A program made the translations under genes and the position numbers. A stretch of 43,676 nt of DNA from Candidatus Uhrbacteria bacterium (lineage in GTDB: Bacteria; Patescibacteriota; Patescibacteriia; UBA9934; CAZDDW01), in NCBI GenBank assembly GCA_043811105.1, contig JBDRNK010000087.1, positions 1 to 43,676 of the forward strand. Direction: 5' to 3'. This document shows positions 2,511 through 43,676 of the stretch, piece after piece. The first letter of the stretch is position 1, and every line of letters begins with the position of its first letter. Under the pieces are notes generated by a model, which worked only from the letters and a program-made list of their open reading frames with translations, was not told the DNA's origin and did not search any database.

Positions 2511-2547
<37 letters not shown>

Positions 2548-5540: not shown

Positions 5541-5573
<33 letters not shown>

Positions 5574-5583
5574 GTGGAGAAGC

Positions 5584-5651
<68 letters not shown>

Positions 5652-6088: not shown

Positions 6089-6132
6089 TCGGTCTCCTAT
6101 CCGCCACGGGCGTCGAAAGTTGCGGGAACCTA

Positions 6133-6173
<41 letters not shown>

Positions 6174-6397
6174 ACCGGTTGTTCTGCCAAGGGCATTGCC
6201 GGGTAGCTACGTTCGGTTTGGATAAGCGCTGAAAGCATATAAGCGCGAAGCCGATCCCAAGATTAACTTTCATTATGAGATCCCTCCGAGATGAGGAGGT
6301 TGATAGGCTCTAGGTGTAAGCGTGGTAACACGTTCAGCCGAGGAGTACTAATAGATCCAGACTCTACAATTACTTAATAAGAATGTTTCGTTCTAGA

Positions 6398-10883: not shown

Positions 10884-10921
10884 GGTTTCATTTGTAGGGA
10901 CCGACAGGCGTAAGCCTGTCA
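10867..10921 (+). repeat. REP-like repeats R2 (gtagcggaaccctttagggtt) and R1 (gtagggaccgacaggcgtaagcctgtca)
   Basis: Both have a GTAG head followed by a palindrome. R2 supplies the last codons and the TAG stop of the upstream gene. R1 recurs at 12214, 13660(-), 24212(-) and 39738(-). Confidence 0.75.
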
Positions 10922-12216: not shown

Positions 12217-12241
12217 GGACCGACAGGCGTAAGCCTGTCAA
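12214..12241 (+). repeat. REP-like repeat R1
   Basis: gtagggaccgacaggcgtaagcctgtca. Its TAG is the stop codon of the PHP gene. Confidence 0.75.
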
Positions 12242-13623: not shown

Positions 13624-13659
13624 GAAAGTTTATTGAATGATTTGTGGTTTAAAACAAAA

Positions 13660-13686
13660 TGACAAGCTTACGCTTGTCGATCCCAC
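13660..13686 (-). repeat. REP-like repeat R1 (GTGG-headed variant)
   Basis: The reverse complement reads gtgggatcgacaagcgtaagcttgtca. Confidence 0.55.
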
Positions 13687-23028: not shown

Positions 23029-23057
23029 CTCTGATGGCGTCTGATATCAGTACGGGA

Positions 23058-23954
23058 CTAAAGTCCCTGAGAATTCAGTGACTTCAAGGCCTTTTTCAAC
23101 TCCTCACCCTCCCTTGGTGGCTTACCGTGCCAGAGATGATCGTTTTCCATAAAATCAACACCTTTGCCTGGAATGGTGTGGCAGATAATAATTGTCGGAC
23201 GTTCCTGAATAGATTTGGCTTCACCTACCGCGTCAACAAATTCACGAATGTTGTGCCCATCGACTTCAATCACGTGCCAGTTAAAGGCTTCGAACTTATC
23301 GCGCAATGGTTCTAACGGACAAACATCCTCAGTGTTGCCATCGATCTGAATGTTGTTGCGATCTAGAACCACTGTCAGATTGTTCAGTCCGAATTTTGGT
23401 GCAACCAAGAAAGCCTCCCAATCGATCCCGCACTCAAGCTCTCCATCGCTGATAAAACAATAAGTGTGCCAGCGAGCTTTGTCCATCTTGGCCACCAAGG
23501 CACAGCCAACCGCTTGAGCGATTCCATCACCAAGAGGGCCTGAGGTGTTTTCAATTCCAGGTAAACGAGTTCGTTCAGGATGTCCCTGCAGTCGAGATCC
23601 GAACTGGCGAAGAGTGTCGAGTTCTTTGATCGGAAAATATCCAGCATGAGCCATGCATACGTATTGAACCGGGCAGTAGTGTCCGGCAGACAAGAACAAG
23701 CGGTCACGCTTTTTCCAATCAGGGTTCTTTGGATCATGTTTAAGGACATGAAAATAAAAAGCAGTCCAGATGTCAGCTGAGCCCAAAGGACCAGCCGAAT
23801 GACCGCTTCCAGCCTTGGCCAGCATTTTCATCATATCAATCCGAATTTCATGTGCTTTAGCCTCAAGTTGTTTTAGCTTGTTGTCGTGCATACCCGGCAG
23901 TAAAACTTTAAACTTTTTATATGTGGCTTGTTTACGAACCAAGCTAAAAACCAA
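23058..23954 (-). CDS. transketolase, N-terminal (TPP-binding) subunit
   Basis: GSGHSAGPLGSADIW, GHPE and FISDGELECG motifs. The likelier start is ATG at 23891 (MHDNKLKQ...). Confidence 0.85.
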   Translation of the reverse strand: MVFSLVRKQATYKKFKVLLPGMHDNKLKQLEAKAHEIRIDMMKMLAKAGSGHSAGPLGSADIWTAFYFHVLKHDPKNPDWKKRDRLFLSAGHYCPVQYVCMAHAGYFPIKELDTLRQFGSRLQGHPERTRLPGIENTSGPLGDGIAQAVGCALVAKMDKARWHTYCFISDGELECGIDWEAFLVAPKFGLNNLTVVLDRNNIQIDGNTEDVCPLEPLRDKFEAFNWHVIEVDGHNIREFVDAVGEAKSIQERPTIIICHTIPGKGVDFMENDHLWHGKPPREGEELKKALKSLNSQGL

Positions 23955-24137
23955 CAGCGGTTGGTGTGCTTAGCAGCCTTTCCAAACTACACCCGACAAC
24001 TAAATATTTAAAGTTTTCCTGCCGGGCATAACATTCCTATTTTAGCACAAATCGTGAATTTTTCTAAGCCAGTTTATCTGGCGTCCGAATTCACTCCGGA
24101 CATAAAGTCCGTTTGAAGTATATTAAAGAACTAAAAA

Positions 24138-24239
24138 GCGGGGTCATCCCCCTACGCTCCTATCGGAGCTTCGGAGGACAGGAGTGACCCCGCTTATATT
24201 TTGTCTGACCATGACAAGCTTACGCTTGTCGGTCCCTAC
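24138..24239. repeat. REP-like cluster: R3 nested in a hairpin, plus R1
   Basis: gcggggtca[ccccctacgctcctatcggagcttcggaggacagg]tgaccccgc at 24138-24193. R1 (minus orientation) at 24212-24239 abuts the stop of the adjacent gene. Confidence 0.65.
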
Positions 24240-31359: not shown

Positions 31360-31388
31360 TTGACAAAACTATATTTTGGTGCTATACT
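31360..31388 (+). promoter_or_regulatory. strong sigma70-type promoter for the downstream ncRNA
   Basis: TTGACA (31360-31365), 17-nt spacer, TATACT (31383-31388). Confidence 0.6.
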
Positions 31389-31394
31389 AGTAAA

Positions 31395-31878
31395 AGATGA
31401 TTCAAAAATAATCTTGTGAGAGAGCCCTGGCCGGGGATAAGGCAAAGAGTAGAGAGTAGAAAGTAGAAGGTAGAAAGGAATAAGCTTATATAAGCTCCTT
31501 TCTACTCTCTACTATCTACTTTCTACCCAAAACGGATGTGTAGATCTCTTTCCGAGGTAAACAGGTCTGTTTATTTTTTTCACTCAGAAACCTGGGGGGA
31601 GAGTCCCCCTTCGCTCCTGAAGGAGCTACGGGGGATAGATAAACCGTTACCAGTAGGGCTTATGCCTGAGAGGTGCGGTGAGCTTAACAGGCTTAATCAG
31701 ACCAGGCTTAGGCTTGCTCTATAGTCATAGTTAAGCTCACGAGCTTATATCTGCTGCTTGCAGCGTTCACTAAGTTCACATCACTCCCAGATTTCTGAGT
31801 GAAAACTCAGCTTAAGGCCCTGTAATATTCTAGTAAACTAGATATAGGACAAAGGTGGTTCGAATCCACTCGGGGCCA
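31395..31878 (+). ncRNA. unclassified ~480-nt structured RNA with a tRNA-like 3' end (tmRNA-like, not confirmed)
   Basis: Own promoter and no credible ORF. Long-range pairs: cactcagaaa (31580) with tttctgagtg (31793); gtgagcttaac (31676) with gttaagctcac (31730). 3' end: GGAC-aaa-ggtgg-TTCGAAT-ccact-cggggcc-A. A candidate 5' acceptor strand ggccctg lies at 31816. No G3:U70. Confidence 0.45.
31447..31527 (+). repeat. REP-like long hairpin R4 (GTAGA-repeat arms) inserted in the ncRNA
   Basis: gagtagagagtagaaagtagaaggtagaaagga ... tcctttctactctctactatctactttctac. A second copy lies at 42555-42630. Confidence 0.75.
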
Positions 31879-31955
31879 GCAAAGAAAATACATCACCAGC
31901 GTTGTTGCTGGTGGTGAAGATCTATAAAAACATGTATTGCTGAAGGAGATGTTTG

Positions 31956-33290
31956 ATGACAGCGACACCGGGTTACGCAAGCGCTCTGGGAGCAGCGCCG
32001 CATTCGACGGCGATGTTCAACCTGTTGACCTTCAACCAGGTCGTGGCCACCCACGGCGGAACAGAGGATTGGATCGAGGCCTGCAAGGCGATTGGCTTCG
32101 ACGAGATGCCACCGCTGGCCGGGCGTGAGGTCCCCAAGGGCCTCTGTCGGGTCTGTGGTCCGAGGGTCGACGTCGAGCAGATCGCTGACGGCGAAGGTCT
32201 GTGGCAGGACGGTGAGTTGCCCGACCTGATCGACGCCGCAGACGAGTACCTGCTCGATCACGGCTACGACATCAACGGCAACCTGATCGACGACCTGGAC
32301 GACGACGAGGACGACGACGAGTTCGACCAGGACCTGGAAGTCCAGGAGAGGTTCGAACTGGCCGAGTTGAAGTCTGCGGAAGATCATCTGCGGACGATCG
32401 CCTATAACGACTTCGGTCACGGTGAGGTGACCTGCTGGAAGGCGTATTATCGCACCCAGTATCGGCCGAGCGTCATCGCCGCACAGTCCAAGGCGCAAGT
32501 GGCCAAGCAGTGGTCGTTTGACGTGCCCTATGGCTGGTACGGCATGTTCGATCGAGACGAGATCGAGCGACCCGAGACCGACGGTCTCGAAGATGTCGAA
32601 GCCTGGATGGCCTGGCACGAAGCAGGTCTGCCCTTCGACGTCCTGTTCGAGCAGGAGATGCTCGAGTTCAACGAGCCCTTCGTTGACGTGTCCGATCCGG
32701 ACTTCGACCATGACTGGGACTGGCACTACCGTGACCGGTCCATGGCCTGGGAGGATTTCGACGAGTACGATGATGACGACGATGATCTGGACGACTGGGA
32801 TCGCATGGACGACGACTGGGGTGATCCCTACGCCGACGGCCTCAACGATGAGTGGTCGATCGACGACAACTCCTGGGAGGACAATGATCCTTACGGCTTC
32901 TGGGACGAGGAAGACGGCTGGAACGAGTACGACATCCGTCGCTCCTGGGGTTTTGGCAAAGGCAGTGGTCGTGAACAGCTTTCACTGGAGTACTTCCGGC
33001 AGAAGCACCCTCGGGTTGAGGATCTCCAGGAAGAGTTCGAGCTGGAGGAGATCAGGGTCAGGGTTCGTGAGAGCCACGACTCGTATCGCCTCTGGCAGGA
33101 AGAGTACGGGAAAGATAACCAGGCCTGGAATAGCTGGAAGCGCTATCGGTGTGCACAACGCTGGCCAGTGGTTCACTCGGTTCCATGGGGTGAGGCTACT
33201 CGACATTTGGCCGCAATCCCAATCAGTCTGGAAGACGACTTCCAGGATCTGCTTCTCGAGGATCTGATGGATCTCGAGGACGCCGCCTAG
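31956..33290 (+). CDS. highly acidic Asp/Glu/Trp-rich protein (hypothetical)
   Basis: 444 aa. gaaggag SD 7 nt before ATG 31956. Runs such as DDLDDDEDDDEFD and DDDDDDLDDWDRMDDDWGDPY. Confidence 0.65.
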   Translation: MTATPGYASALGAAPHSTAMFNLLTFNQVVATHGGTEDWIEACKAIGFDEMPPLAGREVPKGLCRVCGPRVDVEQIADGEGLWQDGELPDLIDAADEYLLDHGYDINGNLIDDLDDDEDDDEFDQDLEVQERFELAELKSAEDHLRTIAYNDFGHGEVTCWKAYYRTQYRPSVIAAQSKAQVAKQWSFDVPYGWYGMFDRDEIERPETDGLEDVEAWMAWHEAGLPFDVLFEQEMLEFNEPFVDVSDPDFDHDWDWHYRDRSMAWEDFDEYDDDDDDLDDWDRMDDDWGDPYADGLNDEWSIDDNSWEDNDPYGFWDEEDGWNEYDIRRSWGFGKGSGREQLSLEYFRQKHPRVEDLQEEFELEEIRVRVRESHDSYRLWQEEYGKDNQAWNSWKRYRCAQRWPVVHSVPWGEATRHLAAIPISLEDDFQDLLLEDLMDLEDAA

Positions 33291-33310
33291 TTCATTCAAC
33301 TCAACAAAGT

Positions 33311-33438
33311 CCAGCAGTCCTTGCTGGCACGTGCCTCGAACACTGTTCGAGGCCTCCACCCTGTACCAGACGTCTCTAACGAGCCGTCGGTACAGGGCCC
33401 TACCAGAGTTTCTGAAGTAATTCAGAAACTCTGGTGGG
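33311..33438 (+). repeat. island junction J1: hairpins Ha, Hb, Hc and a short inverted-core element
   Basis: Ha 33311-33327, Hb 33333-33353, Hc 33359-33397 (ccctgTAcc/ggTAcaggg variant). ccctaccagagtttctgaa-gtaa-ttcagaaactctggtggg at 33398-33438. Confidence 0.75.
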
Positions 33439-33479
33439 AGTAGTTTCCAGATTTTTAAAATGTCCAACAAGGAGGATTC

Positions 33480-34364
33480 ATGGGCAACATTCGTTTCTTT
33501 ATCTGTTCCAACCCGGACACCCTCAAGGAGTGTCTTGAGGGAAATCCTTCAGCCACAGTCGAGGCTGAGTATGGCAACCGTGTGGTCGAAGGGTCGCTGT
33601 TGACTCTGGCCCATCATGGGCTACGGTCGAACAACCCGGCGCCTTGTCTGGCCGAGAACGGCTGTGGTCAGGGGGTCGACCTGGTCGGCTTGAGCCATTT
33701 CGACCTGGACACCCTGGGTGGCTGCATGGCCATCCTGGGCAACAAGTCCGAGGCTGATGGCTTCTGGAACCTGGCTGCGTTCGTGGACGTCAATGGCGCC
33801 CACAAGCTTGGTCAGTCCAAGGCCAGTGTCGAGGACGTCGTCCGGCTCTACGCCTTCTGGGCCTGGAGCAAGGATCACCGGCTGTTCGCCCCACGGGGTG
33901 GTGCGGTACTCGACGTGACCACGGAGATCAAGGCAGCTGCGGCTGCGATCATGGCTATCCTGAACGGTGACCATGATCTGATCGAGGCTGGGATGGAGTT
34001 CCAGGGTGAGGAGACTCACCTGAACAGCTCCTCTTTCGTCGAATTGGTCGACGGGGTGGTCGTCCGGATTGTTCGGAATCAGACGGACTTCGTCAACCAC
34101 CTCTACGTCACTCCTGACGGTCAGGTGGCCCAGGCAGTGGTTTCGCTCAACCTGGGACATGGCGGCTGCACGATCAGTCTGGCTGATCCGGTCGAGGGTG
34201 TGTCCTGTCGGGAGATCGTCCAGTCCGTCTGGACGGACACCGACGACGATGGCAATCTTTTGGCTGGTGGCCATGATGGTATCGCTGGTTCGCCACGCGG
34301 CCAACGGCTCGGTCTGGATGACCTGGTCGCCGTTCGCGACGTCATGGTCAAGGCCCTGACCTGA
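33480..34364 (+). CDS. divergent DHH/DHHA1-like phosphoesterase (tentative)
   Basis: SHFDLDTLGG (motif I-like DxD), NGDHDL (DHH-like), AGGHDGIAGSPRG (GGGH..AAG-like). aaggagg SD. Confidence 0.6.
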   Translation: MGNIRFFICSNPDTLKECLEGNPSATVEAEYGNRVVEGSLLTLAHHGLRSNNPAPCLAENGCGQGVDLVGLSHFDLDTLGGCMAILGNKSEADGFWNLAAFVDVNGAHKLGQSKASVEDVVRLYAFWAWSKDHRLFAPRGGAVLDVTTEIKAAAAAIMAILNGDHDLIEAGMEFQGEETHLNSSSFVELVDGVVVRIVRNQTDFVNHLYVTPDGQVAQAVVSLNLGHGGCTISLADPVEGVSCREIVQSVWTDTDDDGNLLAGGHDGIAGSPRGQRLGLDDLVAVRDVMVKALT

Positions 34365-34376
34365 TCCTTTCAAAGC

Positions 34377-34580
34377 CCAGCAGTCCTTGCTGGCACGTGC
34401 CTCGAACCCTGTTCGAGGCTCCACCAGAGTTATTCAAACAAGTATCATGTCTCAAGTAACCCACCTTCGCCAAGGCTTCGGTGGGCAGGCAAGTATCAAG
34501 TTAGGAAGATATCGCGATATTTTCCATCCTTGATCCTTGAACCTTGTTACTTGAAACTTTCCTTGGATACCCCTGGTGGG
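34377..34580 (+). repeat. island junction J2: Ha, Hb, empty Hc site, inverted-core element invaded by host repeats
   Basis: Ha 34377-34393, Hb 34399-34419. ctccacc|agag has no Hc. ccaccagag (34421) pairs with ccctggtggg (34571). The interior 34440-34557 consists of host-type caagt-arm and ccaccttcgccaaggcttcggtgggcagg repeats. Confidence 0.7.
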
Positions 34581-34602
34581 ATACAATCTAAACGGAGGAA
34601 AG

Positions 34603-34749
34603 ATGAGCAAGATCCTGTCTGTCTGTGTCGAAATCGTGATCTACTGCATGGCATTTGCCATGTATCAGATCTACGAGCGCCGCTACTCGTGCGGCAACCT
34701 GAACAACACCTTGGGCAAGGTCGCCAGCTCCACAGGCTACCACCCGTAG
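34603..34749 (+). CDS. 48-aa small hydrophobic protein
   Basis: ggagga SD 5 nt upstream. MSKILSVCVEIVIYCMAFAMYQIYERRYSCGNLNNTLGKVASSTGYHP. Below the ORF-track cutoff. Confidence 0.5.
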   Translation: MSKILSVCVEIVIYCMAFAMYQIYERRYSCGNLNNTLGKVASSTGYHP

Positions 34750-34767
34750 GAATTGAAAGGAGCCGAC

Positions 34768-35037
34768 GTGAGTATTCGTCAACAGTTGGTTTGCTTCGGG
34801 ATCGTGGCAAAAGTCATGTGCACGATCGTTGGTCTTTGCATCTTGGGTACAGTGCTGCTCGTAGCCAACGTGGCTGCCGTTGCTATCTGGATCGGATGTC
34901 TGCTGGATTGGGACTTTCCGATCTTGTACGCCTTTGTCCCAGCTTTGGTAATGTTTCTGGACGTCTGTGTCAGTCTACTGATTTCCAGGCTCTGGCCAGG
35001 GTTCAGTGACTGGCTTTGCCTCGGGTTCAGGAAGTAG
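34768..35037 (+). CDS. small membrane protein (two or three TM)
   Basis: aaggag SD 5 nt before GTG 34768. Hydrophobic throughout. Confidence 0.55.
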   Translation: MSIRQQLVCFGIVAKVMCTIVGLCILGTVLLVANVAAVAIWIGCLLDWDFPILYAFVPALVMFLDVCVSLLISRLWPGFSDWLCLGFRK

Positions 35038-35214
35038 AAGAAGTATATTGCGTGGGCTGGTTCTTACCAGCTCTAACTGCGAACGCCGCGTATGTTCGCA
35101 GACCCTCTCTAGTTTAGAAATAGCGATCCTAATGAAATTCGAATGGCATTCGAATGATCCGAATATTTGTAAATTAAAGAGGGGGAAACAATTTTCAAAC
35201 AACAAGGAGTGGTC

Positions 35215-35298
35215 ATGACCATCGATTTGATCAGAATCTACAACCGCGTCTATTACCGGATTTTCCGGATTCGACGCTGGTTTCGATCCGCGAAGTAA
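35215..35298 (+). CDS. 27-aa highly basic peptide (speculative)
   Basis: aaggag SD 4 nt before the ATG. MTIDLIRIYNRVYYRIFRIRRWFRSAK. Confidence 0.25.
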   Translation: MTIDLIRIYNRVYYRIFRIRRWFRSAK

Positions 35299-35336
35299 AC
35301 CAAGCCGTTAACGCAGAAGTAGAGGAGGAAGTTGAA

Positions 35337-35699
35337 ATGAGCACGAAAATGCTGATTGCTGCCGTGGTGGTGGTGTTGAACTTCTGGCTGGTGTTCGGCT
35401 GTGTCATGCCAGTGCCGGAGATGGTCTCTGACATCTGTGCCATGATGCTTCGAGCCGAAGCCTGGACGATCGGGCTGTGCCTGGTTTTCAGCGTCTTGTT
35501 CTTCTACGATCAGATGGTTCTGGTCGTGGAGCAACACAAGCTTCGCTGTGGTCAGGTCTGTCGGATCTGGTCCAGAGTGACGGTGCCAGACCCCAAGGAG
35601 CTGGGTGTTCGCGAAATGGTTTGCGAGGCCTGGATCATCAGCATGGAAAAGGTTGTACACGCACAACAGCGCGTGCACCGTTTCCTACAAAACGTGTAG
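35337..35699 (+). CDS. hypothetical membrane protein
   Basis: gaggagga SD. 120 aa with N-terminal TM helices. Confidence 0.55.
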   Translation: MSTKMLIAAVVVVLNFWLVFGCVMPVPEMVSDICAMMLRAEAWTIGLCLVFSVLFFYDQMVLVVEQHKLRCGQVCRIWSRVTVPDPKELGVREMVCEAWIISMEKVVHAQQRVHRFLQNV

Positions 35700-35743
35700 C
35701 TTACACGTACGACACCGGAGTCGCACTCGCGATTCCAAATTTA

Positions 35744-35890
35744 CCCTGAACCAGACATCTCTAACGAGCCGTCGGTTCAGGGCCCCACCTGAGATGTTAA
35801 GAGATTTTTCTAACGGGGTTTATCCCCGGTCTGACTGTCAGACGCCAGATGAACTGGCTAAGAAAAATTTCTTAAATCCTCTGGTAGGGG
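35744..35890 (+). repeat. island junction J3: Hc plus element II (copy 1)
   Basis: Hc 35744-35782. Element II 35783-35890: closing stem ttaagagatttttct/agaaaaatttcttaa around three small hairpins (gggg..cccc, tctga..tcaga, gccag..ctggc). Confidence 0.75.
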
Positions 35891-35898
35891 ATCAAAAA

Positions 35899-35925
35899 AC
35901 CGCCATGTAGGCGGTGGTTCGAATC
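35899..35925. terminator. hairpin between convergent genes, overlapping a T-arm-like 13-mer
   Basis: aaaaaaccgcc-atgt-aggcggt. ggtggttcgaatc (35913-35925) is identical to 31854-31866. Confidence 0.45.
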
Positions 35926-35936
35926 TTTACAAATAT

Positions 35937-36287
35937 TTATCGTAACTCTAGCTGGACATGTTGAGCTATCTGTTGTAACTGTGATTCGAGTCGTTCATAT
36001 TTAGATTGCAAAGCAATAAGTTCAGTCTCGAGTTTATTGTGTAAACTAATGAAACCGTCGACTTGGGTAATGATTTCAGATTTTGCTTCATTTACTACTT
36101 CCTTAATTTCAGTACCCAGCTCACCTTTTAAGTTAGAGATTTCAAAAGAGAGATCATCCTTCGAGGTCATGTGAGATTCTAACTCATGCAGATCATCCTT
36201 TGAAGCCGCATTATCTTTAATAAATTCAACAGTATCAAGTACTTGTTGTAGAGCGTTATCTTGATCCATACAAATGTAATTTAACAT
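35937..36287 (-). CDS. coiled-coil protein, AT-rich (paralog of 39116-39613)
   Basis: Start chosen at MLNYICMDQ by homology with the paralog. Shared C-terminus LETEL.ALQSKYERLESQLQQIAQH.QLELR. The line 36001-36060 hand-counts to 35% GC. Confidence 0.6.
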   Translation of the reverse strand: MLNYICMDQDNALQQVLDTVEFIKDNAASKDDLHELESHMTSKDDLSFEISNLKGELGTEIKEVVNEAKSEIITQVDGFISLHNKLETELIALQSKYERLESQLQQIAQHVQLELR

Positions 36288-36310
36288 ATTGTCGAGTAGA
36301 TGACAATGTT

Positions 36311-36409
36311 CTACCAGAGATGAATATTTCTTACCCAACTTGTTGGGGTTTTAAATCAAGACGGGAATAAATTCCCTGAGAAGTATTAAGAAATATCGTT
36401 TCTGGTGGG
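36311..36409 (+). repeat. island element I, copy 1 (structured leader candidate)
   Basis: ctaccagag...tctggtggg bracket. Inner hairpins cccaa-cttg-ttggg and gggaat-aa-attccc. 33 nt upstream of ATG 36443. Confidence 0.7.
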
Positions 36410-36442
36410 AGAAAAATTACATTCAATAAGAAAGGAAACGAG

Positions 36443-36700
36443 ATGACTGAGAAACAGCAGGAAAAGATGCTGACCGAGCTGAACTGGCTCAAGCGCTGGT
36501 TGGTTCGCCAGCCGCGCTGGTTGCAGATGGGCTTCTTGCTCATCTCAGGCCTTTTGCTCGGAGCTGACCTGATTCTGGTCGACCCGATTCCGCTGATCGA
36601 TGAAGCCTTGCTCATCTGGTCCACTTGGACCGGGTTCAAGGTGGCGGTCAACGATGGTCCACGGTATCGGCGTTTGGAAGCGCCGCAGGAGGAGTCATGA
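36443..36700 (+). CDS. small membrane protein, DUF1232/YkvA-like (tentative); paralog of 39855-40115
   Basis: 85 aa. ADLILVDPIPLIDEALLIWS resembles the DUF1232 D.IPD.IP..G..DD motif. Confidence 0.6.
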   Translation: MTEKQQEKMLTELNWLKRWLVRQPRWLQMGFLLISGLLLGADLILVDPIPLIDEALLIWSTWTGFKVAVNDGPRYRRLEAPQEES

Positions 36701-36939
36701 AGTATTGGCTCTTCGAACAGATTCCGCGGGTCTGGGTAACGGTCGTTCTGATCGCTGTCTGGTCAATTCTGGCCACGGCCACGCTAGCTGCCTGGCCCTT
36801 ACCCACCAGTTATGATGTCTGGGTCGGGCGTGGTCTTGGCTGTATACTCCTGACCTCCATTCCGGCCTTGTTGACCGAGCCGATTATTTTCGCACTCTGG
36901 TGGCCAGGCAAGCCCTTCGAGCTTCGGCCACGAAGCTGA
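36697..36939 (+). CDS. small membrane protein
   Basis: ATGA overlap with the upstream stop. aggaggag SD. 80 aa. The C-terminal KPFELRPRS is encoded by the shared repeat. Confidence 0.55.
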   Translation: MKYWLFEQIPRVWVTVVLIAVWSILATATLAAWPLPTSYDVWVGRGLGCILLTSIPALLTEPIIFALWWPGKPFELRPRS

Positions 36940-37119
36940 ACCTTCCCCACTCGCCCGGAACCATTCACGGTTCCGGGCCCTACCCTGAACCAGACGTCTC
37001 TAGCGAGTCGTCGGTTCAGGGCCCTACCAGAGATGAATATTTCTTACCCAACTTGTTGGGGTCAAGACGGGAACAAGTTCCCTGAGAAATATTATTTCTG
37101 GTGGGGGACGAAGTTTTTT
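36911..37119 (+). repeat. island junction J5: He, Hf, Hc, element I (copy 2)
   Basis: He gcttcg-gcca-cgaagc 36921-36936. Hf 36954-36977. Hc 36983-37021. Element I 37024-37105. 36983-37119 is identical to 37903-38039. Confidence 0.8.
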
Positions 37120-37185
37120 ACAACACGGCTTTACAGAGCCAAGGTCCGTCGAACGGGCCGAGCAATAAAGAAAGATAGGAAAGAC

Positions 37186-37491
37186 ATGCCATATTTGCAA
37201 TTGGTACATACCACGGGTAGCGACTTCATCATGGGATGGCACGGTTTTGGTGACACATCAATGCCTGACGGTGTGAATTTGCACTGTCTGTGCGATACGG
37301 GCACCACAATCGTATTTCCAAGTCTGGTCAGTGTGGCCGGTCTTGCCCTGACCGTGAGCAACATCAAAGCTTTGCTCAAGGCTTGGTTGAACGAGCAGGA
37401 AAGCCTGCCGGTTCATGTCTGCCCGAAGTGTGGTATCGATGGTAGTTCTGACAAGGATAAGGTCTTGGCTTGGTTACAAGCCCTTCGGTAA
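37186..37491 (+). CDS. hypothetical protein
   Basis: 101 aa from ATG 37186. Contains CPKC. The upstream part of the track ORF is element I sequence. Confidence 0.45.
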   Translation: MPYLQLVHTTGSDFIMGWHGFGDTSMPDGVNLHCLCDTGTTIVFPSLVSVAGLALTVSNIKALLKAWLNEQESLPVHVCPKCGIDGSSDKDKVLAWLQALR

Positions 37492-37593
37492 TTTAACAGT
37501 CCACCAGGGAAGATGGGCTTTCGCCCAATCCTGGCGTCCTTAGTCGGACGTAGAAGATGGACCCTGTCCACTAGGGCAGGAATTCGGAAAGAT

Positions 37594-37893
37594 ATGAAGA
37601 GATTTCTGAAGACGGTATCGTCCTACACGTTCACGGCCGCAGTCTACACGGTTCTGGCAGTACTGGTCCTGGCTATCGTGATTCCGATCGTGACCTTTGT
37701 TGGTGGACATGTCTGCCTGGTCGTTTGCGCCCTGGTCTGGGAGTTTTTTCCAGCCTGGGATCTGGGAGTGATCGGTGTGATCGGCGCTGCCACCTTCATC
37801 TTCGATGCAGTATTTCTACCATTCCTGATTCCGATCTTTCTGATCGTAGCAACCTGGCTGCTCACCCCGAGCAAGAAGCGGCAATGTTGCTAA
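37594..37893 (+). CDS. small polytopic membrane protein
   Basis: 99 aa from ATG 37594 (alternative start 37513). Hydrophobic throughout and ends in CC. Confidence 0.5.
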   Translation: MKRFLKTVSSYTFTAAVYTVLAVLVLAIVIPIVTFVGGHVCLVVCALVWEFFPAWDLGVIGVIGAATFIFDAVFLPFLIPIFLIVATWLLTPSKKRQCC

Positions 37894-37902
37894 ACTCTTT
37901 CG

Positions 37903-38039
37903 CCCTGAACCAGACGTCTCTAGCGAGTCGTCGGTTCAGGGCCCTACCAGAGATGAATATTTCTTACCCAACTTGTTGGGGTCAAGACGGGAACAAGTTC
38001 CCTGAGAAATATTATTTCTGGTGGGGGACGAAGTTTTTT
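37903..38039 (+). repeat. island junction J6: Hc plus element I (copy 3)
   Basis: 137-bp perfect copy of 36983-37119. Confidence 0.85.
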
Positions 38040-38064
38040 CAAACAACAAATGAAGGAGAGAACG

Positions 38065-38469
38065 ATGTTGAATACAGAAAGAACCTTGCGCGATTTCGTC
38101 TTTCTGGTGTACCAGTTGGCAGTGAACGATAACGATCAGTTGCCGCCAACACCGTGGACCGACATCAAGATCACGCCGGCCAAGTACGCTGTTCTGCTGC
38201 GTCAGGGCTGGCAACGGGCTCAGAAGGGTCGAATGCAGATGTGTCTGCGCTTTGATCTTCCGGATGGGTCTGTGGCCTATCTCGGTAACGGTGACCCTCA
38301 GGGTCATAACAACGATATCTGGCACGGTCGGATCGAGGGTCCGATCGCCGAAAGCCTCGGCTGCCGCTGGATCGAGTTTGGTGTCATGGCCGATGCCGAA
38401 GTCGACACCAAGGGTCTGTTGGCTGCAACCAAACGTAGCCGGCCCTTCGAGCTTCGGCCACGAAGCTGA
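38065..38469 (+). CDS. hypothetical protein
   Basis: gaaggag SD 6 nt before ATG 38065. 134 aa. The C-terminal RPFELRPRS is encoded by the shared repeat. Confidence 0.55.
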   Translation: MLNTERTLRDFVFLVYQLAVNDNDQLPPTPWTDIKITPAKYAVLLRQGWQRAQKGRMQMCLRFDLPDGSVAYLGNGDPQGHNNDIWHGRIEGPIAESLGCRWIEFGVMADAEVDTKGLLAATKRSRPFELRPRS

Positions 38470-38615
38470 ACCTTCCCCACTCGCCCGGAACCATTCACGG
38501 TTCCGGGCCCTACCAGAGTTGTTCAATAATTTTTCTAACGGATCTCTGATCCGGTTCTGAATTCGAACGCCATCAGAGATGGCTAAGAAGAACTTCTGAA
38601 CATATCTGGTAGGGG
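38441..38615 (+). repeat. island junction J7: He, Hf, empty Hc site, element II variant
   Basis: 38442-38514 is identical to 36912-36984. gggccctacc|agag has no Hc. Element 38510-38615 is bracketed by ctaccagag / atctggtagggg. Confidence 0.8.
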
Positions 38616-38640
38616 ACAATTACAAACAGAGGAGGTACAA

Positions 38641-38883
38641 ATGTACCGCGTGATCATTGCGATTTTTTGGGCCATGGTGGCCTTTGGAATGTTCTGGGGT
38701 TTTGTTTTCGGCCACCTGCACGTGGTCGGATTCATCGAGTGTCTGATTCGTCAGGACTTCAGTTCGGATCCAGGTTACTTGATGAGCATCGTGGCGATCT
38801 TGACCGTACTGCTCGACATCTTTGCATTCCTCGCTTTCATACTTGGAATGCACTGCCGCATCTTTCTGTGGTGCCGCAGTTGA
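38641..38883 (+). CDS. small membrane protein
   Basis: gaggagg SD. 80 aa with two hydrophobic helices. Confidence 0.55.
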   Translation: MYRVIIAIFWAMVAFGMFWGFVFGHLHVVGFIECLIRQDFSSDPGYLMSIVAILTVLLDIFAFLAFILGMHCRIFLWCRS

Positions 38884-38890
38884 AATATTT

Positions 38891-39071
38891 CACTCGCCCG
38901 GAACCATTCACGGTTCCGGGCCCCACCCTGAACCAGACGTCTCTAACGAGTCGTCGGTTCAGGGCCCCACCTGAGATGTTAAGAGATTTTTCTAACGGGG
39001 TTTATCCCCGGTTTGTAAGTCAGACGCCAGATAAACTGGCTAAGAAAAACAGCTTAACACATCAGGTTGGG
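38891..39071 (+). repeat. island junction J8: Hf, Hc, element II (copy 2)
   Basis: Hf 38897-38920, Hc 38926-38964, element II 38965-39071 (closely similar to 35783-35890 over its first ~50 nt). Confidence 0.8.
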
Positions 39072-39115
39072 TCAATCAAAAAACCGCTTTGTCAGCAGTT
39101 TTGTTCTTAAAAGGA

Positions 39116-39613
39116 TTATCGCAGTTCCAATTGAATATGTTGAGCTATCTGTTGTAATTGCGATTCAAGACGTTCGTACTTGGATTGAAGAGCCACAAGT
39201 TCAGTTTCAAGTTTGTTGTGTAGATTGATAAAGCCATCGATTTGAGTGACTATTTCAGATTTTGCACCAGAAATTATTTGTTCAACATCGGCTTTGACTA
39301 CTGCGTTATCTTTGACAAATTCAACTGTTTCTTGCACCCCAGCCATATCCTCTCTGAGAGAACTAACGTCTGTTTTTACTCCAGACATATCTTCTTTGAG
39401 AGAACCAACGTCTGTTTTAAGAGAACCAACATCTGTTTTTACCCCAGCCATATCCTCTTTAAGGGAGCTGACATCTGTTTTAAGAGAACCAACATCTGTT
39501 CGAACTGAACCAACCGCCACTTCCAATCCTTTGATTGCTTCCCGGTTTGAGGTGGTGGTATCTAGAATTTTTTCAAGTAGTGATTGTTGATCCATACAAA
39601 AGTAATTTAACAT
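39116..39613 (-). CDS. coiled-coil protein with an internal 21-nt tandem repeat expansion (paralog of 35937-36287)
   Basis: 165 aa. Heptad-like repeats DVGSLKT/DVSSLKE/DMAGVKT. Same N- and C-termini as the paralog. Confidence 0.65.
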   Translation of the reverse strand: MLNYFCMDQQSLLEKILDTTTSNREAIKGLEVAVGSVRTDVGSLKTDVSSLKEDMAGVKTDVGSLKTDVGSLKEDMSGVKTDVSSLREDMAGVQETVEFVKDNAVVKADVEQIISGAKSEIVTQIDGFINLHNKLETELVALQSKYERLESQLQQIAQHIQLELR

Positions 39614-39636
39614 ATTGTCGAGTAGATGACAATGTT

Positions 39637-39818
39637 CTACCAGAGATTAGTATTTCTTACCCAATTTACCTGGCCGCCGAAGCTTTAGCGAAGGCGGGTT
39701 GGGGTTGTGATGGGAACGACAAACTTTAGTTTGTCAAATGACAGACTAACGTCTGTCAGTCCCTACAAGACGGGAATAAATTCCCTGAGAAGTATTAAGA
39801 AATATAATTTCTGGTGGG
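39637..39818 (+). repeat. island element I, copy 4, interrupted by host REP-like repeats
   Basis: Same ends as copy 1. About 100 nt are inserted (39668-39767), containing cctggccgccgaagctttagcgaaggcgggttgggg and tgacagactaacgtctgtcagtccctac. Confidence 0.75.
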
Positions 39819-39854
39819 AGAAAAGGTTTTACAATCAATACGAAAGGGAACAAA

Positions 39855-40115
39855 ATGACTGAGAAACAGCAAGAGCAAATGCTGACTGAGCTGAACTGGC
39901 TCAAGCGCTGGTTGATTCGTCAGCCTCGCTGGTTGCAGGTGAGCTTCTTGTTCATCTCAGCCGCGCTGTTCGGTGTCGACATGATCGCGCTCGACCCGCT
40001 GCCCTTCATCGACGAAGCCATTCTGGCCTGGTCCACCTGGACCGGGTTCAAGGTGGCGGTCAACGACGGTCCGCGGTATCGGCGCTTGGATGCACCCGAG
40101 TCCAAATCTACCTAA
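39855..40115 (+). CDS. small membrane protein, DUF1232/YkvA-like (tentative)
   Basis: 86 aa. Closely similar to the 36443-36700 product (MTEKQQE.MLTELNWLKRWL.RQPRWLQ...). Confidence 0.6.
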   Translation: MTEKQQEQMLTELNWLKRWLIRQPRWLQVSFLFISAALFGVDMIALDPLPFIDEAILAWSTWTGFKVAVNDGPRYRRLDAPESKST

Positions 40116-40141
40116 ACCTCTCAAACATCTGAGGAGAAAAA

Positions 40142-40441
40142 ATGCAGACGGTTCTGGTAATATTGATGTTGATGGCTATGATTCTGGGCGGAGTGGCTAC
40201 TGCCCTTCGTATCTGGACTAAGAGCCAATGGACTGGTCGTCTGGCACTAGCCAGCCTGGTCAGTTTGATTCTGGGAACGGCCTGGGCCATTGGTTCTGGC
40301 CACTGGGTAATGGTGATCATGGAGCCGGTGATGTGGTTCCTGACCCTGGCCAGTGTCTGGCTGTTCAGCTACAGCCTTTGGCATCTGAACAATCCGGTCA
40401 AGCTGGCCTATGCGCGGTTGCGGTTGCGACTGCACAACTGA
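40142..40441 (+). CDS. small polytopic membrane protein
   Basis: gaggag SD. 99 aa with three hydrophobic helices. Confidence 0.55.
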   Translation: MQTVLVILMLMAMILGGVATALRIWTKSQWTGRLALASLVSLILGTAWAIGSGHWVMVIMEPVMWFLTLASVWLFSYSLWHLNNPVKLAYARLRLRLHN

Positions 40442-40449
40442 ATATCTTG

Positions 40450-40608
40450 CCCCGGAACCTATCGTGGTTCCGGGGCCCTACCCTGAACCAGACGTCTCTA
40501 ACGAGCCGTCGGTTCCGGGCCCCACTTAAGCACAGCAGTTTGATGAATATCGAAACTCTCTCTCAATATTCATTAAACCAGCAATGCTGTGCTTAGGTGG
40601 GGTTTTTT
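40450..40608 (+). repeat. island junction J10 / right end: Hf variant, hybrid Hc, terminal hairpin plus T-run
   Basis: ccccggaacc-tatcgt-ggttccgggg 40450-40475. Hc with an Hf-type 3' arm at 40481-40519. cccacttaagcacagca...tgctgtgcttaggtgggg followed by TTTTTT (40603-40608). Confidence 0.7.
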
Positions 40609-40643: not shown

Positions 40644-42560
40644 ATGTGTGGAATCGTTGGCTATATAGGTAAAAAACAGGCCCTGCCGATCTTAATTGAT
40701 GGGTTAAAGCGTTTGGAATACCGTGGTTATGATTCGGCTGGGGTGGCGTTGTTGGGTGAGGGGGGTTGTCAGATTATTAAGAGTCCGGGGAAGATAGTAG
40801 GATTAGAAGAGAAAGTCTCAAGTTTCAAGTCTCAAGTCTCAAGTGCTGGAATCGCTCATACTCGCTGGGCGACTCATGGGCCTCCGACTGAGGCCAATGC
40901 TCATCCGCATACTGATTGCTCTGGCAAAATTGCCTTAGTTCATAACGGAATTGTTGAGAACTATCAGGAATTGAAACAAGAATTACAGGAGAAGGGACAT
41001 CAGTTTCGTTCAGAAACGGATACTGAAGTGTTGGTGCATTTGATTGAAGATTGTTTAAATAATGTAGCGGAAGGCTTTAGCCTTCCATGTCAGCAAAATG
41101 GAACCCTCCCACCTTCGCCAAGGCTTCGGCGGGCAGGAAAGGGTTCCTCTACATTAGAAATGGCAACCAGAAAGGCATTAGAACAAGTGCGCGGCACTTA
41201 CGGTATTGCTGTAGTTTCATCTGATCATCCAGATCAAATCGTGATTGCTCGCATGGGCAGCCCGATTGTTATTGGTGTGGGCACTGATGATTTTTTTGTT
41301 GCTTCAGATGCTTCAGCTTTGTTAAGTCATACCCGCAATGTAATTTATCTTGACGATGGCGAGATGTGTGTTTTACGACCGGACGGTTATTCGATTAAGA
41401 CTTTGGGTAATCGATCAGTGGCTAAAGAACCAGAAGTTATTGAGTGGTCAGCTGAAGATGTTAAAAAAGGTGGACATCCGCATTTCATGAAAAAGGAAAT
41501 GATGGAACAGCCAAAAGTTTTGGTTGATTCTATTCGCGGTCGTTTAAAACCAAAAGATGGAAAAGCCGTGCTTGGTGGTTTAAGCGATGTTGCCGATCGT
41601 CTGCGTCAAATTGATCGACTAATTATTGTTGCCTGCGGTAGTGCCTACTATTCCGGCCTGGTCGGCGAGTATATGTTGGAAGAATATGCTGGTATTCCAG
41701 TGGAAGTAGATCTGGCTTCAGAGTTTCGTTATCGCAAACCGATTATTACAGATCGCACAGCCGTGCTTGCAGTTAGTCAATCCGGAGAAACCGCAGACAC
41801 ACTAGCAGCGATCCGTGAGGCAAAAGAAAAAGGTGCTTTAACCTTGGGAATCGTTAATACGGTTGGATCGACCATAGCTCGGGAAACCGATGCCGGTATT
41901 TACAATCATGCCGGCCCGGAAATTGGAGTGGCTTCAACTAAGGCTTTTTTATCGCAAGCAACAGTCTTTGCTTTATTAACCATGTTTCTTGGTCGACAGC
42001 GATCAATGTCAATGGTCATGGGTAAGCGTATAGCTGATGAGATTCAGATGCTTCCAGACAAGTTGCAATCAATCATTAACCAGTTTGATCAGATCTCGCT
42101 TCTGGCTCAGAAATACAAAGACATGCAAAATTGTTTGTACTTGGGACGAAAATACTGTAGTCCAATTGCTTACGAAGGAGCTTTGAAACTTAAAGAGATT
42201 TCTTATATTCACGCTGAAGGTTATGCAGCTGGAGAAATGAAACACGGTCCGATCGCTTTGATTGATTCAAACTTTGTTTCCGTTGTGCTATGTCCAAAAG
42301 ACTCGGTTTATGAAAAAACTATATCTAACATCGAAGAACTTAAGGCTCGTGGTGGTTCGATCATCGCCGTGACAACTGAAGGCAACGATTCGATTAAACA
42401 AGTCGCAGATGATATAATCTATATACCAAAAACTTTAGAAATGTTAACTCCAATTTTGGCTGTGGTTCCGTTGCAAATTTTTGCTTACGCAATTGCTACA
42501 GCTCGTGGTTATGATCCGGACATGCCCAGGAATCTGGCTAAAGCCGTGACCGTGGAGTAG
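40644..42560 (+). CDS. glmS: glutamine--fructose-6-phosphate aminotransferase
   Basis: MCGIVGYIG N-terminal nucleophile. GIAHTRWATHG. Two SIS domains. C-terminal ...AKAVTVE. Confidence 0.95.
   Translation: MCGIVGYIGKKQALPILIDGLKRLEYRGYDSAGVALLGEGGCQIIKSPGKIVGLEEKVSSFKSQVSSAGIAHTRWATHGPPTEANAHPHTDCSGKIALVHNGIVENYQELKQELQEKGHQFRSETDTEVLVHLIEDCLNNVAEGFSLPCQQNGTLPPSPRLRRAGKGSSTLEMATRKALEQVRGTYGIAVVSSDHPDQIVIARMGSPIVIGVGTDDFFVASDASALLSHTRNVIYLDDGEMCVLRPDGYSIKTLGNRSVAKEPEVIEWSAEDVKKGGHPHFMKKEMMEQPKVLVDSIRGRLKPKDGKAVLGGLSDVADRLRQIDRLIIVACGSAYYSGLVGEYMLEEYAGIPVEVDLASEFRYRKPIITDRTAVLAVSQSGETADTLAAIREAKEKGALTLGIVNTVGSTIARETDAGIYNHAGPEIGVASTKAFLSQATVFALLTMFLGRQRSMSMVMGKRIADEIQMLPDKLQSIINQFDQISLLAQKYKDMQNCLYLGRKYCSPIAYEGALKLKEISYIHAEGYAAGEMKHGPIALIDSNFVSVVLCPKDSVYEKTISNIEELKARGGSIIAVTTEGNDSIKQVADDIIYIPKTLEMLTPILAVVPLQIFAYAIATARGYDPDMPRNLAKAVTVE
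41064..41153 (+). repeat. 90-nt nested REP-like insertion (R3 inside R2), in frame within glmS
   Basis: gtagcggaaggctttagccttccat gtcagc aaaatggaaccct[cccaccttcgccaaggcttcggcgggcagg]aaagggttcc tctaca. Encodes VAEGFSLPCQQNGTLPPSPRLRRAGKGSST. Confidence 0.75.
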
Positions 42561-42630
42561 AGAGTAGAAGGTAGAAGGTAGAAAGGAATAAATTTAACTC
42601 CTTTCTACTCTCTACTTTCTACCTTCTACT
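42555..42630 (+). repeat. REP-like long hairpin R4 filling the glmS to HD-gene spacer
   Basis: gagtagagagtagaaggtagaaggtagaaagga...tcctttctactctctactttctaccttctac. Its first TAG is the glmS stop, and the ATG of the next gene follows at 42631. Confidence 0.8.
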
Positions 42631-43676
42631 ATGTGGTTATCAGGAAAACGAAAACTAACCCTTCACGCACGTGACCTGGATGAAGTCTTGGGGAATTTTG
42701 AGCAAGACCGTTTTTTAATTGAATGGACCGATCAGGTGATCAAAGAGACAACTAAAAATTTCCCGATTCTAACTGATATATTTGCCAGTCCGCAATCAGC
42801 CAACAAACACGCCGAAGGTCCGTTGTTGGAAGATCATGTTCGTAAGATATTAATGACTCTTTACGCTTTGGTTGAGGGTCGGTTTAGTTTGTTGGAGGTT
42901 GAGGAGTTTCGACGAATGAAAGGGTATGAGGGTGAATTTGAAGAATTAGAGGAAACAATAAAAGAACGGGCTGGTATGTTTAAGGTCTATGCTCTGATTC
43001 ATGATATTGGAAAAGCGGCAACAATTTCATTTTCCGCTCCTGAAGGAAGTAAAGGTGCGGAATATGGTTTTGCCCAGTCAGTGGCGATTGGTTGGGACGA
43101 CTTTGCCGGTGATCAACGTTTTTCAGCTAGAAAAAAATATGATGACCTTTATGCTACTTTTGCCGTAAATCGATCCGGACAAGATCAAAAAGTAATTCAG
43201 GCGGAGTTTTTCCGTGAGTTCCAGATATCGATTTCCAATCATGGTCATGCTAGGTTGATTTTTGCCCCTGAGTTAAATAAGGTTGTGCGTGCATTAGCTA
43301 AAGAAAACAGACTACCTGAAAATGATATTGATTTGCTCGAAGAATTAATTGCTGTTCATATGGATACAGCTCATTATTTTTGGGGCAAAGCTGATCCTCA
43401 AGACTATGCACATTTTGTTGAATATTCAGCCGGTATCGGTCAGGACGCTGATGATTTTTTGGACTTGCTTCAGGCTGCTGCATTTTTAGATAAGGTTTGT
43501 GGTTCATGGAAATTGTCAGCCGGTGGCTATTGGCACAGTTGTGAAATATTAACTAATTTTTTGCAGGCTGAACATGATTACGCACCTTGGCGACGAGAGG
43601 CTGCTGAAGAGCGTCGGGCTAAGCGAGAGTTGGAAAAGCGACGAGAGATATATCGTCAGGTTGGTTTGGATGGTGA
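42631..43676 (+). CDS. HD-domain protein (3'-partial, runs off the window)
   Basis: Open frame from ATG 42631 to the window end, so not in the track (no stop). HAEGPLLEDHVRKIL ... YALIHDIGKA (H...HD). Confidence 0.65.
   Translation, partial: MWLSGKRKLTLHARDLDEVLGNFEQDRFLIEWTDQVIKETTKNFPILTDIFASPQSANKHAEGPLLEDHVRKILMTLYALVEGRFSLLEVEEFRRMKGYEGEFEELEETIKERAGMFKVYALIHDIGKAATISFSAPEGSKGAEYGFAQSVAIGWDDFAGDQRFSARKKYDDLYATFAVNRSGQDQKVIQAEFFREFQISISNHGHARLIFAPELNKVVRALAKENRLPENDIDLLEELIAVHMDTAHYFWGKADPQDYAHFVEYSAGIGQDADDFLDLLQAAAFLDKVCGSWKLSAGGYWHSCEILTNFLQAEHDYAPWRREAAEERRAKRELEKRREIYRQVGLDG

Follow-up and report, generated by a model that had tools for sequence, protein, structure and literature searches.

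Stacked palindromes resembling REP/BIME mosaics in a strain-variable array of small, mostly orphan genes between ssrA and glmS of a Patescibacteria clade

Integrons can form sedentary chromosomal arrays, such as those of Vibrio with their attC repeats (Vibrio cholerae repeats, VCR), and attC clusters without an integrase (clusters of attC sites lacking integron integrases, CALINs) are known as well. In phage T7, hairpins between genes are processed by RNase III, and self-cleaving ribozymes take intercistronic positions elsewhere. Among the nested small dispersed repeats of cyanobacteria and the Rickettsia palindromic elements, repeats are found inserted in the loops of other repeats. Repetitive extragenic palindromes (REPs) are defined as GC-rich palindromes with a GT(A/G)G head in front, and bacterial interspersed mosaic elements (BIMEs) are head-to-tail clusters of them; a survey of REP-associated tyrosine transposases (RAYTs) found these only in gammaproteobacteria (PMC2817692). 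The promoter-early stem-loops (PeSLs), each a terminator plus an early promoter in the phage genome, belong to the hyperplastic regions of T4-type phages (PMC2839356, PMC4122927). Here we describe an array of small genes between ssrA and glmS, with stacks of conserved hairpins in its junctions, on a complete 43.7-kb contig from a member of the Patescibacteria (candidate phyla radiation, CPR); this whole stretch of DNA is called the window in the following.

The array spans positions 31956-40608, with ssrA to its left and glmS to its right, and is made up of 14 plus-strand genes in the same orientation and two AT-rich genes on the reverse strand. Its GC content is 0.52 compared to approximately 0.42 in the backbone. 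The window further contains a 23S rRNA gene, 5S rRNA, tRNA-Ala and, as housekeeping functions, isoleucyl-tRNA synthetase (IleRS), a transketolase operon and glmS, whose closest named relatives are Patescibacteria including Ca. Uhrbacteria. The explanation we favor, and to which we give about half of our credence, is that of a strain-variable orphan-gene array in which array-specific REP/BIME-like mosaics punctuate polycistronic genes shuffled by recombination.

Related loci were found by a search with glmS, after scans with DNA patterns had given no copies elsewhere. In five relatives, whose glmS is 76-86% identical, small plus-strand genes without Pfam matches lie directly upstream of glmS. 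In the four of them with DNA upstream of glmS the array has a GC content of 0.49-0.59 compared to 0.42-0.46 for the backbone, and because this contrast is seen in all four it represents a standing property of the locus and not a recent transfer into one strain. A further relative of the left flank (L177) has another gene order and no array.

The gene-by-gene comparison covers two relatives, L172 and L174. They share o48, o89, o27, o85, o80, o99, o134 and the reverse coiled-coil gene with the window at 51-93% protein identity. The order o48-o89 of the window is o89-X69-o48 in L172, from which o294, o120, o101, o80b, o86 and o99b are missing; L174 joins o85 straight to o134, and the gene adjoining glmS differs in each genome. 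A reading of the window made from the letters alone (the sequence-only reading) had called the stretch cassette-like and suggested a comparison of strains as a check. This comparison bears it out: relatives with 84-86% identical glmS share the genes, reordered and with gains and losses at the same site, and polymorphism of order, content and junction modules is found in L172 as well as in L174. In L175 the contig ends 1.5 kb ahead of glmS and in L176 0.16 kb ahead of it, and these assembly breaks are consistent with an array that is repetitive or heterogeneous within the population.

The junctions between the genes are assembled from a small set of hairpins, for which the sequence-only reading had proposed a fixed order: a first pair (Ha+Hb or He+Hf), then Hc, then a long element. 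Such a vocabulary is real and far from what chance would give. Six copies of Hc, four of Hf and two of Ha+Hb are present where shuffled sequences give none, and about 10 of the 14 junctions follow the order, while some junctions carry no module at all. Ha (33311-33327) and Hb (33333-33353) occur a second time at 34377-34419, all on the plus strand, and as a pair in L172 (39-81). The REP-like unit Hc is found on the plus strand at 33359-33397, 35744-35782, 36983-37021, 37903-37941, 38926-38964 and 40481-40519, with at most two mismatches in each copy and no occurrence in shuffled sequences. Hf, also REP-like and on the plus strand, has three exact copies (36954-36977, 38484-38507 and 38897-38920) and a variant at 40450-40475. 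Hf and Hc share a stem family, CCCKGAACC/GGTTCMGGG, in which the apical parts are interchangeable; Hf variants with other loops occur in L172, L174 and L175, and the Hc of L174 has its apical part replaced. A further hairpin module, Hg (35717-35736), had not been listed before.

The stems of Hb, Hf and Hc are perfect palindromes of 9 bp each, followed on the plus strand by C(C/T)CYACC. The joint GGGCCCYACCWGAG occurs seven times in exact form, always on the plus strand and always within 33.3-40.6 kb. Copy 1 of Hc shows a compensatory change from A-T to T-A in its stem. The junctions fold with z-scores of -6 to -12, and none of 200 shuffled sequences folds equally well.

Read on the bottom strand, the sequence GGT(A/G)GG precedes the palindrome in 12 of the 12 copies of Hb, Hf and Hc scanned, Hc in full reading GGT(A/G)GGG followed by CCCTGAACC…GGTTCAGGG; in Hb the head is GTGG. 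The extended form GGTRGGGCC has nine occurrences against 0.3 expected, all of them on the bottom strand and within the array. The earlier statement that the hairpins lack a GTAG head is therefore correct for the plus strand only. A GT(A/G)G head thus stands directly before a GC-rich palindrome, and the units lie outside genes and are clustered as ordered mosaics, with the exception of He, which is coding. The sequence-only reading had found no described family for the elements; on sequence features REP/BIME is a close fit, with the two unusual traits of confinement to one array and of direct stacking.

The confinement was followed in several collections. No copy of Hc, Hf, Ha+Hb or the long hairpin L is present in the 35 kb of backbone of the window. 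In all sequence available, the motif of L is counted about 23 times and the joint 16 times in 21.9 kb of arrays, compared to once each in 74.4 kb of backbone. The pattern of Hc, exact or degenerate, has no match in genome, viral and metagenome collections. A looser stem pattern gave three viral and 120 metagenome matches, which are single hairpins consistent with chance, none of them with any other junction sequence, and were discarded. The core pattern of the type A insert described below is not found in viral contigs.

The backbone has a REP family of its own, GTAGGGACCGACAGGCGTAAGCCTGTC, in both orientations, with copies at 10894-10920 and 12213-12239 (plus strand) and at 24213-24239 and approximately 13659-13684 (minus strand). 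These carry a GTAG head (GTAGGGACC followed by GACAGGC…GCCTGTC) and stems with compensatory changes, and three of the four sit immediately after the stop codon of the preceding gene. The genome of the window is rich in dispersed palindromes. CPR genomes are small, and we know of no report of repeat richness in them, nor of REP elements in a CPR genome.

The long element, L, had been taken for one array-specific unit. It consists of one basal hairpin family, CCYACCAGAG…CTCTGGTRGGG, whose apical loop either is a tetraloop, as in the first junction (J1), or holds further structured repeats. The simple form lies at 33398-33439 and forms with apical inserts at 34420-34583, 35783-35890, 36311-36410, 37022-37106, 37942-38026, 38508-38615, 38965-39072 and 39637-39819, all on the plus strand. 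A degenerate L on the same strand (J7, 37501-37536) had been overlooked, and J3 possibly holds another one. L can be described as an inverted pair of CTCTGGT(A/G)GGG arms, each without a palindrome of its own; reading of the flanks gave no consistent target-site duplication, as would mark a MITE, around the copies. Hc has the direct repeat GGGCCCYACC on either side, and this repeat could equally well serve homologous recombination. It is always positioned 20-80 nt upstream of a ribosome-binding site, and it is retained in L175 with its 76% identical glmS. The basal stem covaries over four genomes (AGAG/CTCT, AAAG/CTTT, CAAG/CTTG and TAAG/CTTA).

The filling of the apical loop is variable. Upstream of o85 the window, L172 and L174 together show four forms of L. 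L174 has a simple hairpin there and L172 a heptamer-type palindrome, whereas in the window J5 holds a two-hairpin insert (type A) and J11 type A together with a backbone-type REP and another hairpin. This REP (39739-39766, minus strand, GTAGGGAC-TGACAGAC…GTCTGTCA) is missing from the paralogous J5. Type A, with a conserved CAAGACGGGAAYAARTTCCCTGAGAA, is seen at 37036-37093 (plus strand), and further copies lie within the L elements at 36311-36410, 37942-38026 and 39637-39819. Its plus strand folds 11-13 kcal/mol better than its minus strand; three of the four copies have four G-U pairs on the plus and none or one on the minus strand, and the fourth has five on either.

A second insert, type B, is a three-hairpin core of the form UCUAACGG-hairpin-CCGG-hairpin-CGCC-hairpin-GGCUAAGAA at 35803-35878, 38528-38603 and 38985-39060 (plus strand). 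The covariance models R1 and R2 score it with 87-123 bits, and seven base pairs show compensatory changes among the three array copies. The same core is found outside the array on the minus strand at 24048-24122, 22942-23016 and, in part, 23018-23073 (R2 scores of 73.1, 71.5 and 31.8 bits), co-oriented with the transketolase operon. As the core also occurs outside, the long elements are nested composites with at least one component that is not array-specific, here at 22.9-24.1 kb. The question of a genome-wide scatter, raised by the sequence-only reading, therefore has a divided answer: in the sequence examined the GC-rich modules are restricted to the array, while the nested three-hairpin core is not. 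In the copy at 22942-23016 the closing stem overlaps GGCUAGGAAAUAUG, which probably comprises the ribosome-binding site and start codon for the second subunit of transketolase. This cloverleaf-shaped motif of the operon has no match in Rfam; both a dispersed repeat and an RNA with a cis-regulatory function are conceivable.

The terminal L (J13, 40520-40603, plus strand) is orthologous and covarying in L172 and L174. It is the only hairpin of the array with a T-run (GGTGGGGTTTTTTG, T6) directly after it, and for this reason it is likely to be the intrinsic terminator of the array.

The junctions also bear traces of how the array is rearranged. Copies within the genome are 99-100% identical, compared to 77-86% DNA identity of orthologous genes between strains: positions 36983-37125 and 37903-38045 agree at 99% and 36912-36984 and 38442-38514 at 100%, and the block 35743-36700 corresponds to 38925-40100 at about 80-97%. 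Since several junctions are recent copies of each other, only some five to six independent junction types remain. The proposed module He (36921-36936 and 38451-38466, plus strand) belongs to such a copy and had to be given up as an independent module, being the coding sequence for the C-terminal PFELRPRS of o134 that was duplicated onto o80. The C-terminus of o134 is PFELRPR(S/P/T) in the window, L172 and L174, whereas o80 ends with GKP* in L172 and with GKPFELRPRS* in the window; the tail of o134 together with Hf was copied onto o80 over 73 nt at 100% identity, joined at the short homology AAGCCCT.

Several homology breakpoints between the strains fall on the 5′ edge of L, e.g. upstream of o85 and o99. 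Others are free of hairpins and lie at boundaries of stop codon and ribosome-binding site (o48|o89, o85|o134, X142|o134), and some are found inside coding 3′ ends at short homologies, the fusion of o134 and o80 at AAGCCCT being an example. Junction J13 is orthologous in the three genomes and consists of Hf+Hc+L in the window and in L174 but of Hf+L only in L172. The idea that the modules are present or absent independently of one another is not supported as it stands; in part the pattern is a by-product of segmental duplication and short-homology recombination.

From this the following picture may be drawn. In a clade of Patescibacteria, the stretch between ssrA and glmS has long held an array that varies between strains and is made up of small genes, most of them orphans. 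Hb, Hf and Hc are stacked head-to-tail immediately upstream of L, whose apical loop has repeatedly received nested palindromic repeats, some of them resident in the backbone too. The palindromes would be gained, lost and copied locally, i.e. they multiply and decay, and together with the short homologies at gene ends they could provide the substrates for homologous or illegitimate recombination by which genes are duplicated, deleted and reordered; the “combinatorial” junctions would be its outcome. The plus-strand genes are presumably read as long polycistronic units, apart from the reverse genes r133 and r165. Located after the 3′ ends of cistrons and before ribosome-binding sites, the stacks would form very stable, non-terminating hairpins that most likely act as exonuclease barriers and processing sites, as do REP/BIME in enterobacteria, and only the last L, with its U-tract, would terminate transcription. 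A role in the sense-strand RNA is supported by the fold preference of type A for the plus strand, by the covariation of stems and by junctions without promoters of consensus quality.

Several points weigh against this picture. The RNA role of the stacks is one that we infer from sequence. The GC-rich units are confined to arrays, unlike classical REPs with their genome-wide scatter. Hf and Hc follow one another in direct orientation, whereas the cores of BIMEs and of REPINs (REP doublets forming hairpins) hold inverted pairs. The head motif is the complement of the 5′ arm of L, so that its likeness to a REP head may be fortuitous. Neither a RAYT nor another Y1/HUH transposase is found in the window or in the flanks seen.

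One could dispense with mobile DNA entirely and regard the stacks as selected structures inside the operon, i.e. sites of RNase III or other processing or stabilizers of 5′ and 3′ ends, their repetition being due to duplication and gene conversion only. We consider this possible, with a probability well below that of our preferred explanation. The covariation and the favored plus-strand fold are what one would expect from it, as are the position of L, always 20-80 nt ahead of a ribosome-binding site, its retention in L175 and the internal hairpins without U-tracts. Hammerhead ribozymes with a covarying stem I stand at the same relative position beside distant relatives of o294; this equivalent intercistronic position serves as an analogy only. 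The proposal does not accommodate that Hc is present or absent at one orthologous junction, nor that unrelated repeats are nested in L. The perfect palindromes of Hb, Hf and Hc contain no information on the strand. In J5 and J11, transcription from the predicted promoter would begin inside L and thus leave out part of the stem. Comparison of the array with known ribozymes and RNA families gave no match: Rfam 15 gives nothing at gathering score and, up to E = 10, only spurious matches of miRNA-like hairpins.

The mosaic explanation that we favor has also to be compared with one in which genes are moved by an enzyme. Here the GT(A/G)G-headed hairpins and L would be folded single-strand sites for an HUH/RAYT-like or other recombinase encoded elsewhere, which would capture, excise and reorder small genes on an integrase-independent cassette platform of the CPR. 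We think this unlikely; if true, it would be a functional analogue of the integron built on different chemistry. In its favor stand the fixed chromosomal site of the array in five relatives, the co-oriented and promoter-less orphan genes, the restriction of the palindromes to arrays, gain, loss and reordering of genes between strains, a GC content unlike the backbone in all four genomes compared, and the breakpoints at the 5′ edge of L. Against it, no recombinase of any kind is encoded in or beside the array, no L has attC end motifs, some junctions lack modules, and other breakpoints are hairpin-free or lie within coding 3′ ends. No domain of the Phage_integrase type or of another recombinase is found in any open reading frame (ORF) of the window, which covers 31 kb upstream and 3 kb downstream of the array, nor among the called genes flanking the arrays of the five relatives. 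No L starts with RYYYAAC or ends with GTTRRRY; all start with CCYACC and end with GGTRGG. A scan of the array for the attC motif gives one match, which coincides with no L, compared to a mean of 0.16 and a maximum of two in shuffled sequences.

The array is thus not an integron, as the sequence-only reading had already stated. It does have the integron trait of co-oriented, promoter-less cassettes with a content that varies between strains, and it is also integron-like in occupying a fixed site, in holding orphan cassettes and in having palindromes specific to the array. The tests on integrase and attC ends were negative.

A model after the T4-type phages, in which each junction is a PeSL-like regulatory cassette of terminator and promoter traveling with its gene, seems improbable to us. 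There, too, small orphan genes lie between copies of a conserved stem-loop motif that mediates shuffling (PMC2839356, PMC4122927), and a -10-like box (AATATT) in J5 and J11 stems from the type A elements. The internal hairpins are, however, not followed by a U-tract (the next sequence is e.g. CCCTACC, GACGAAG or AGTAG), and the junctions have no promoter of consensus quality but two weak matches of 9/12, located downstream of the reverse genes in J5 and J11. The internal hairpins do not appear to be a set of terminators, and only the terminal L would qualify. Phage genes and matches to PHROGs are missing from the array, and blastn gives no match of it to phages or plasmids; it is not recognizably phage or plasmid.

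That ordinary genome-wide REPs merely look like an array where many small genes provide many junctions is highly improbable, given that Hf, Hc and L are missing from the 35 kb of backbone of the window, have at most one chance-level match in the 74 kb of backbone across relatives and, in being GC-rich, resemble the array and not the backbone, even if GT(A/G)G heads, a genome rich in dispersed palindromes and the three-hairpin core outside the array would fit.

The plus-strand genes are ORFs with strong ribosome-binding sites: o444 (31956-33290), o294 (33480-34364), o48 (34603-34749), o89 (34768-35037), o27 (35215-35298), o120 (35337-35699), o85 (36443-36700), o80 (36697-36939), o101 (37186-37491), o99 (37594-37893), o134 (38065-38469), o80b (38641-38883), o86 (39855-40115) and o99b (40142-40441). 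Comparison of the array proteins to Pfam and PHROGs gave no family except DUF6116 in o85 and o86, above threshold in o86 only. With its 27 codons (MTIDLIRIYNRVYYRIFRIRRWF…) o27 is likely to be a real micro-protein gene; it is 77% identical at protein level in L172 and L173, where it has another upstream neighbor. On the minus strand lie the coiled-coil gene r133 (35937-36287, GC 0.35) and its coiled-coil paralogue r165 (39116-39613), each with its own promoter and terminator. Both are AT-rich like the backbone though located inside the GC-rich array. r165 holds about eight tandem repeats of 21 nt (seven amino acids) at 39347-39514, which r133 does not have; an orthologue of r133 is present in L174 (4226-4579).

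The protein of o294 has 839 homologues, the few named ones being from Patescibacteria, and a genome scan adds relatives in metagenome-assembled genomes of Clostridia type. It is without a Pfam match, and its fold, predicted with high confidence (predicted local distance difference test, pLDDT, 96.5), is that of a DHH/DHHA1 phosphoesterase like NrnA, RecJ and GdpP. The 41 genome loci with homologues have no other array gene in common with the window, and the three-hairpin core, the sole element modeled and searched there, is missing from them. Several of these loci carry repeated junction hairpins of their own, unrelated to those of the window. In the CPR genomes L014 (8793-9846), L016 (9718-11256), L047 (485-2782) and L048 the o294 homologues are flanked by repeated intergenic regions of 175-500 nt with several hairpins each, again of unrelated sequence. 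In the repeats of L009, read by eye only, there is a TTGACG and what may be a -10 box.

Well-formed hammerhead ribozymes of the minimal type III adjoin o294 homologues between genes of two CPR contigs (L001, 9596-9650 and 11330-11385; L046, approximately 1150-1225). They have an intact core (CUGAUGA…GAAA) and a covarying stem I; their score of 23.6 bits is under the gathering threshold of Rfam. A search for hammerheads in the array itself gave none.

At the left border, the tmRNA gene ssrA (31423-31880, plus strand) is interrupted by a palindrome of approximately 90 nt made of heptamer-like repeats (31443-31532). With this insert it is detected neither by ARAGORN nor by Rfam; the ARAGORN call requires its removal. 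Near-copies of the insert lie after glmS (42555-42629) and in L172 (5221-5300). There is a weak tRNA-like match inside ssrA (31816-31878) and a strong promoter at 31360-31388 (TTGACA-17-TATACT). An integrated island would be marked by a second copy of the 3′ end of ssrA, in direct orientation, at the opposite border; the sole match, 13 nt at 35913 with E = 0.06, was rejected as evidence for one.

The right border, glmS (40644-42560, plus strand), is kept in all relatives. It contains an in-frame insertion of about 25 amino acids (41060-41150, residues ~139-170) that is missing from an 84% identical orthologue and coincides with a palindromic repeat also present in J2 (34460-34493). Residues 59-68 are altered by another patch of heptamer repeats (40816-40850). 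This recalls the in-frame insertions by Rickettsia palindromic elements. Between glmS and ruvA a protein of 405 amino acids is kept in all relatives (window 42672-43676, L172 8274-9491), for which neither a domain nor a sequence match in the PDB was found.

Elsewhere in the window, the 23S rRNA gene (1950-6366) is 4.4 kb long compared to a model of 2.9 kb. It contains a group I intron (5697-6016) and, as a separate insertion, an ORF for a LAGLIDADG homing endonuclease (4361-4942). The short ORF at 12642-13217 encodes part of a reverse-transcriptase domain (RVT_1) and is possibly what is left of a retron or a group II intron.

The site between ssrA and glmS represents a hotspot of gene turnover in the whole clade, with REP-like palindromes of its own that are not seen in the nearby backbone. 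It offers a concrete locus for studying the gain and loss of small membrane and orphan genes in episymbionts, and to our knowledge it extends REP/BIME-type elements to a phylum from which they had not been described. It also raises the question whether palindromes confined to an array can organize the exchange of cassettes without an integron integrase. Annotators should be aware that assemblies break at this site.

Compared to known systems, the array has in common with integron arrays and CALINs the fixed chromosomal site, many small orphan genes that are co-oriented and lack promoters, the imperfect palindrome of 40-180 nt that separates them and is specific to the array, strain-variable content and a distinct base composition. 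It differs in having neither IntI nor palindromes ending in RYYYAAC/GTTRRRY, and its cassette boundaries lie at no fixed point, with some junctions hairpin-free and some breakpoints in coding ends. PeSL cassettes likewise have conserved intergenic stem-loops that flank small orphan genes and provide homology for modular shuffling; the array differs from them by its internal hairpins without U-tracts, by the lack of consensus-quality promoters and of phage genes. The long conserved intercistronic hairpins in a polycistronic unit recall the RNase III hairpins of T7 and intercistronic ribozymes, and hammerheads hold the equivalent position in distant o294 relatives, whereas the array has no ribozyme motif. 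The nested repeats of cyanobacteria and the Rickettsia palindromic elements correspond to it in the placing of repeats in the loops of others and in the in-frame insertion into a gene, here glmS; the sequences are different, and nesting in the array targets the apical loop of one array-specific hairpin.

The closest likeness is to REP/BIME and the REPIN-RAYT systems of Enterobacteria, Pseudomonas and Stenotrophomonas. The units of the array differ from these in being confined to one array and not scattered genome-wide, in being stacked directly and not as inverted pairs, in their CPR host and in that no RAYT is seen with them in the window or flanks. They correspond in the GT(A/G)G head with its GC-rich palindrome of 20-40 nt, in their position outside genes at 3′ ends within operons, in their ordered mosaic clusters and in the local gain and loss of units. 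The expected effect on RNA would be the same as well, i.e. a 3′ hairpin that stabilizes the upstream mRNA.

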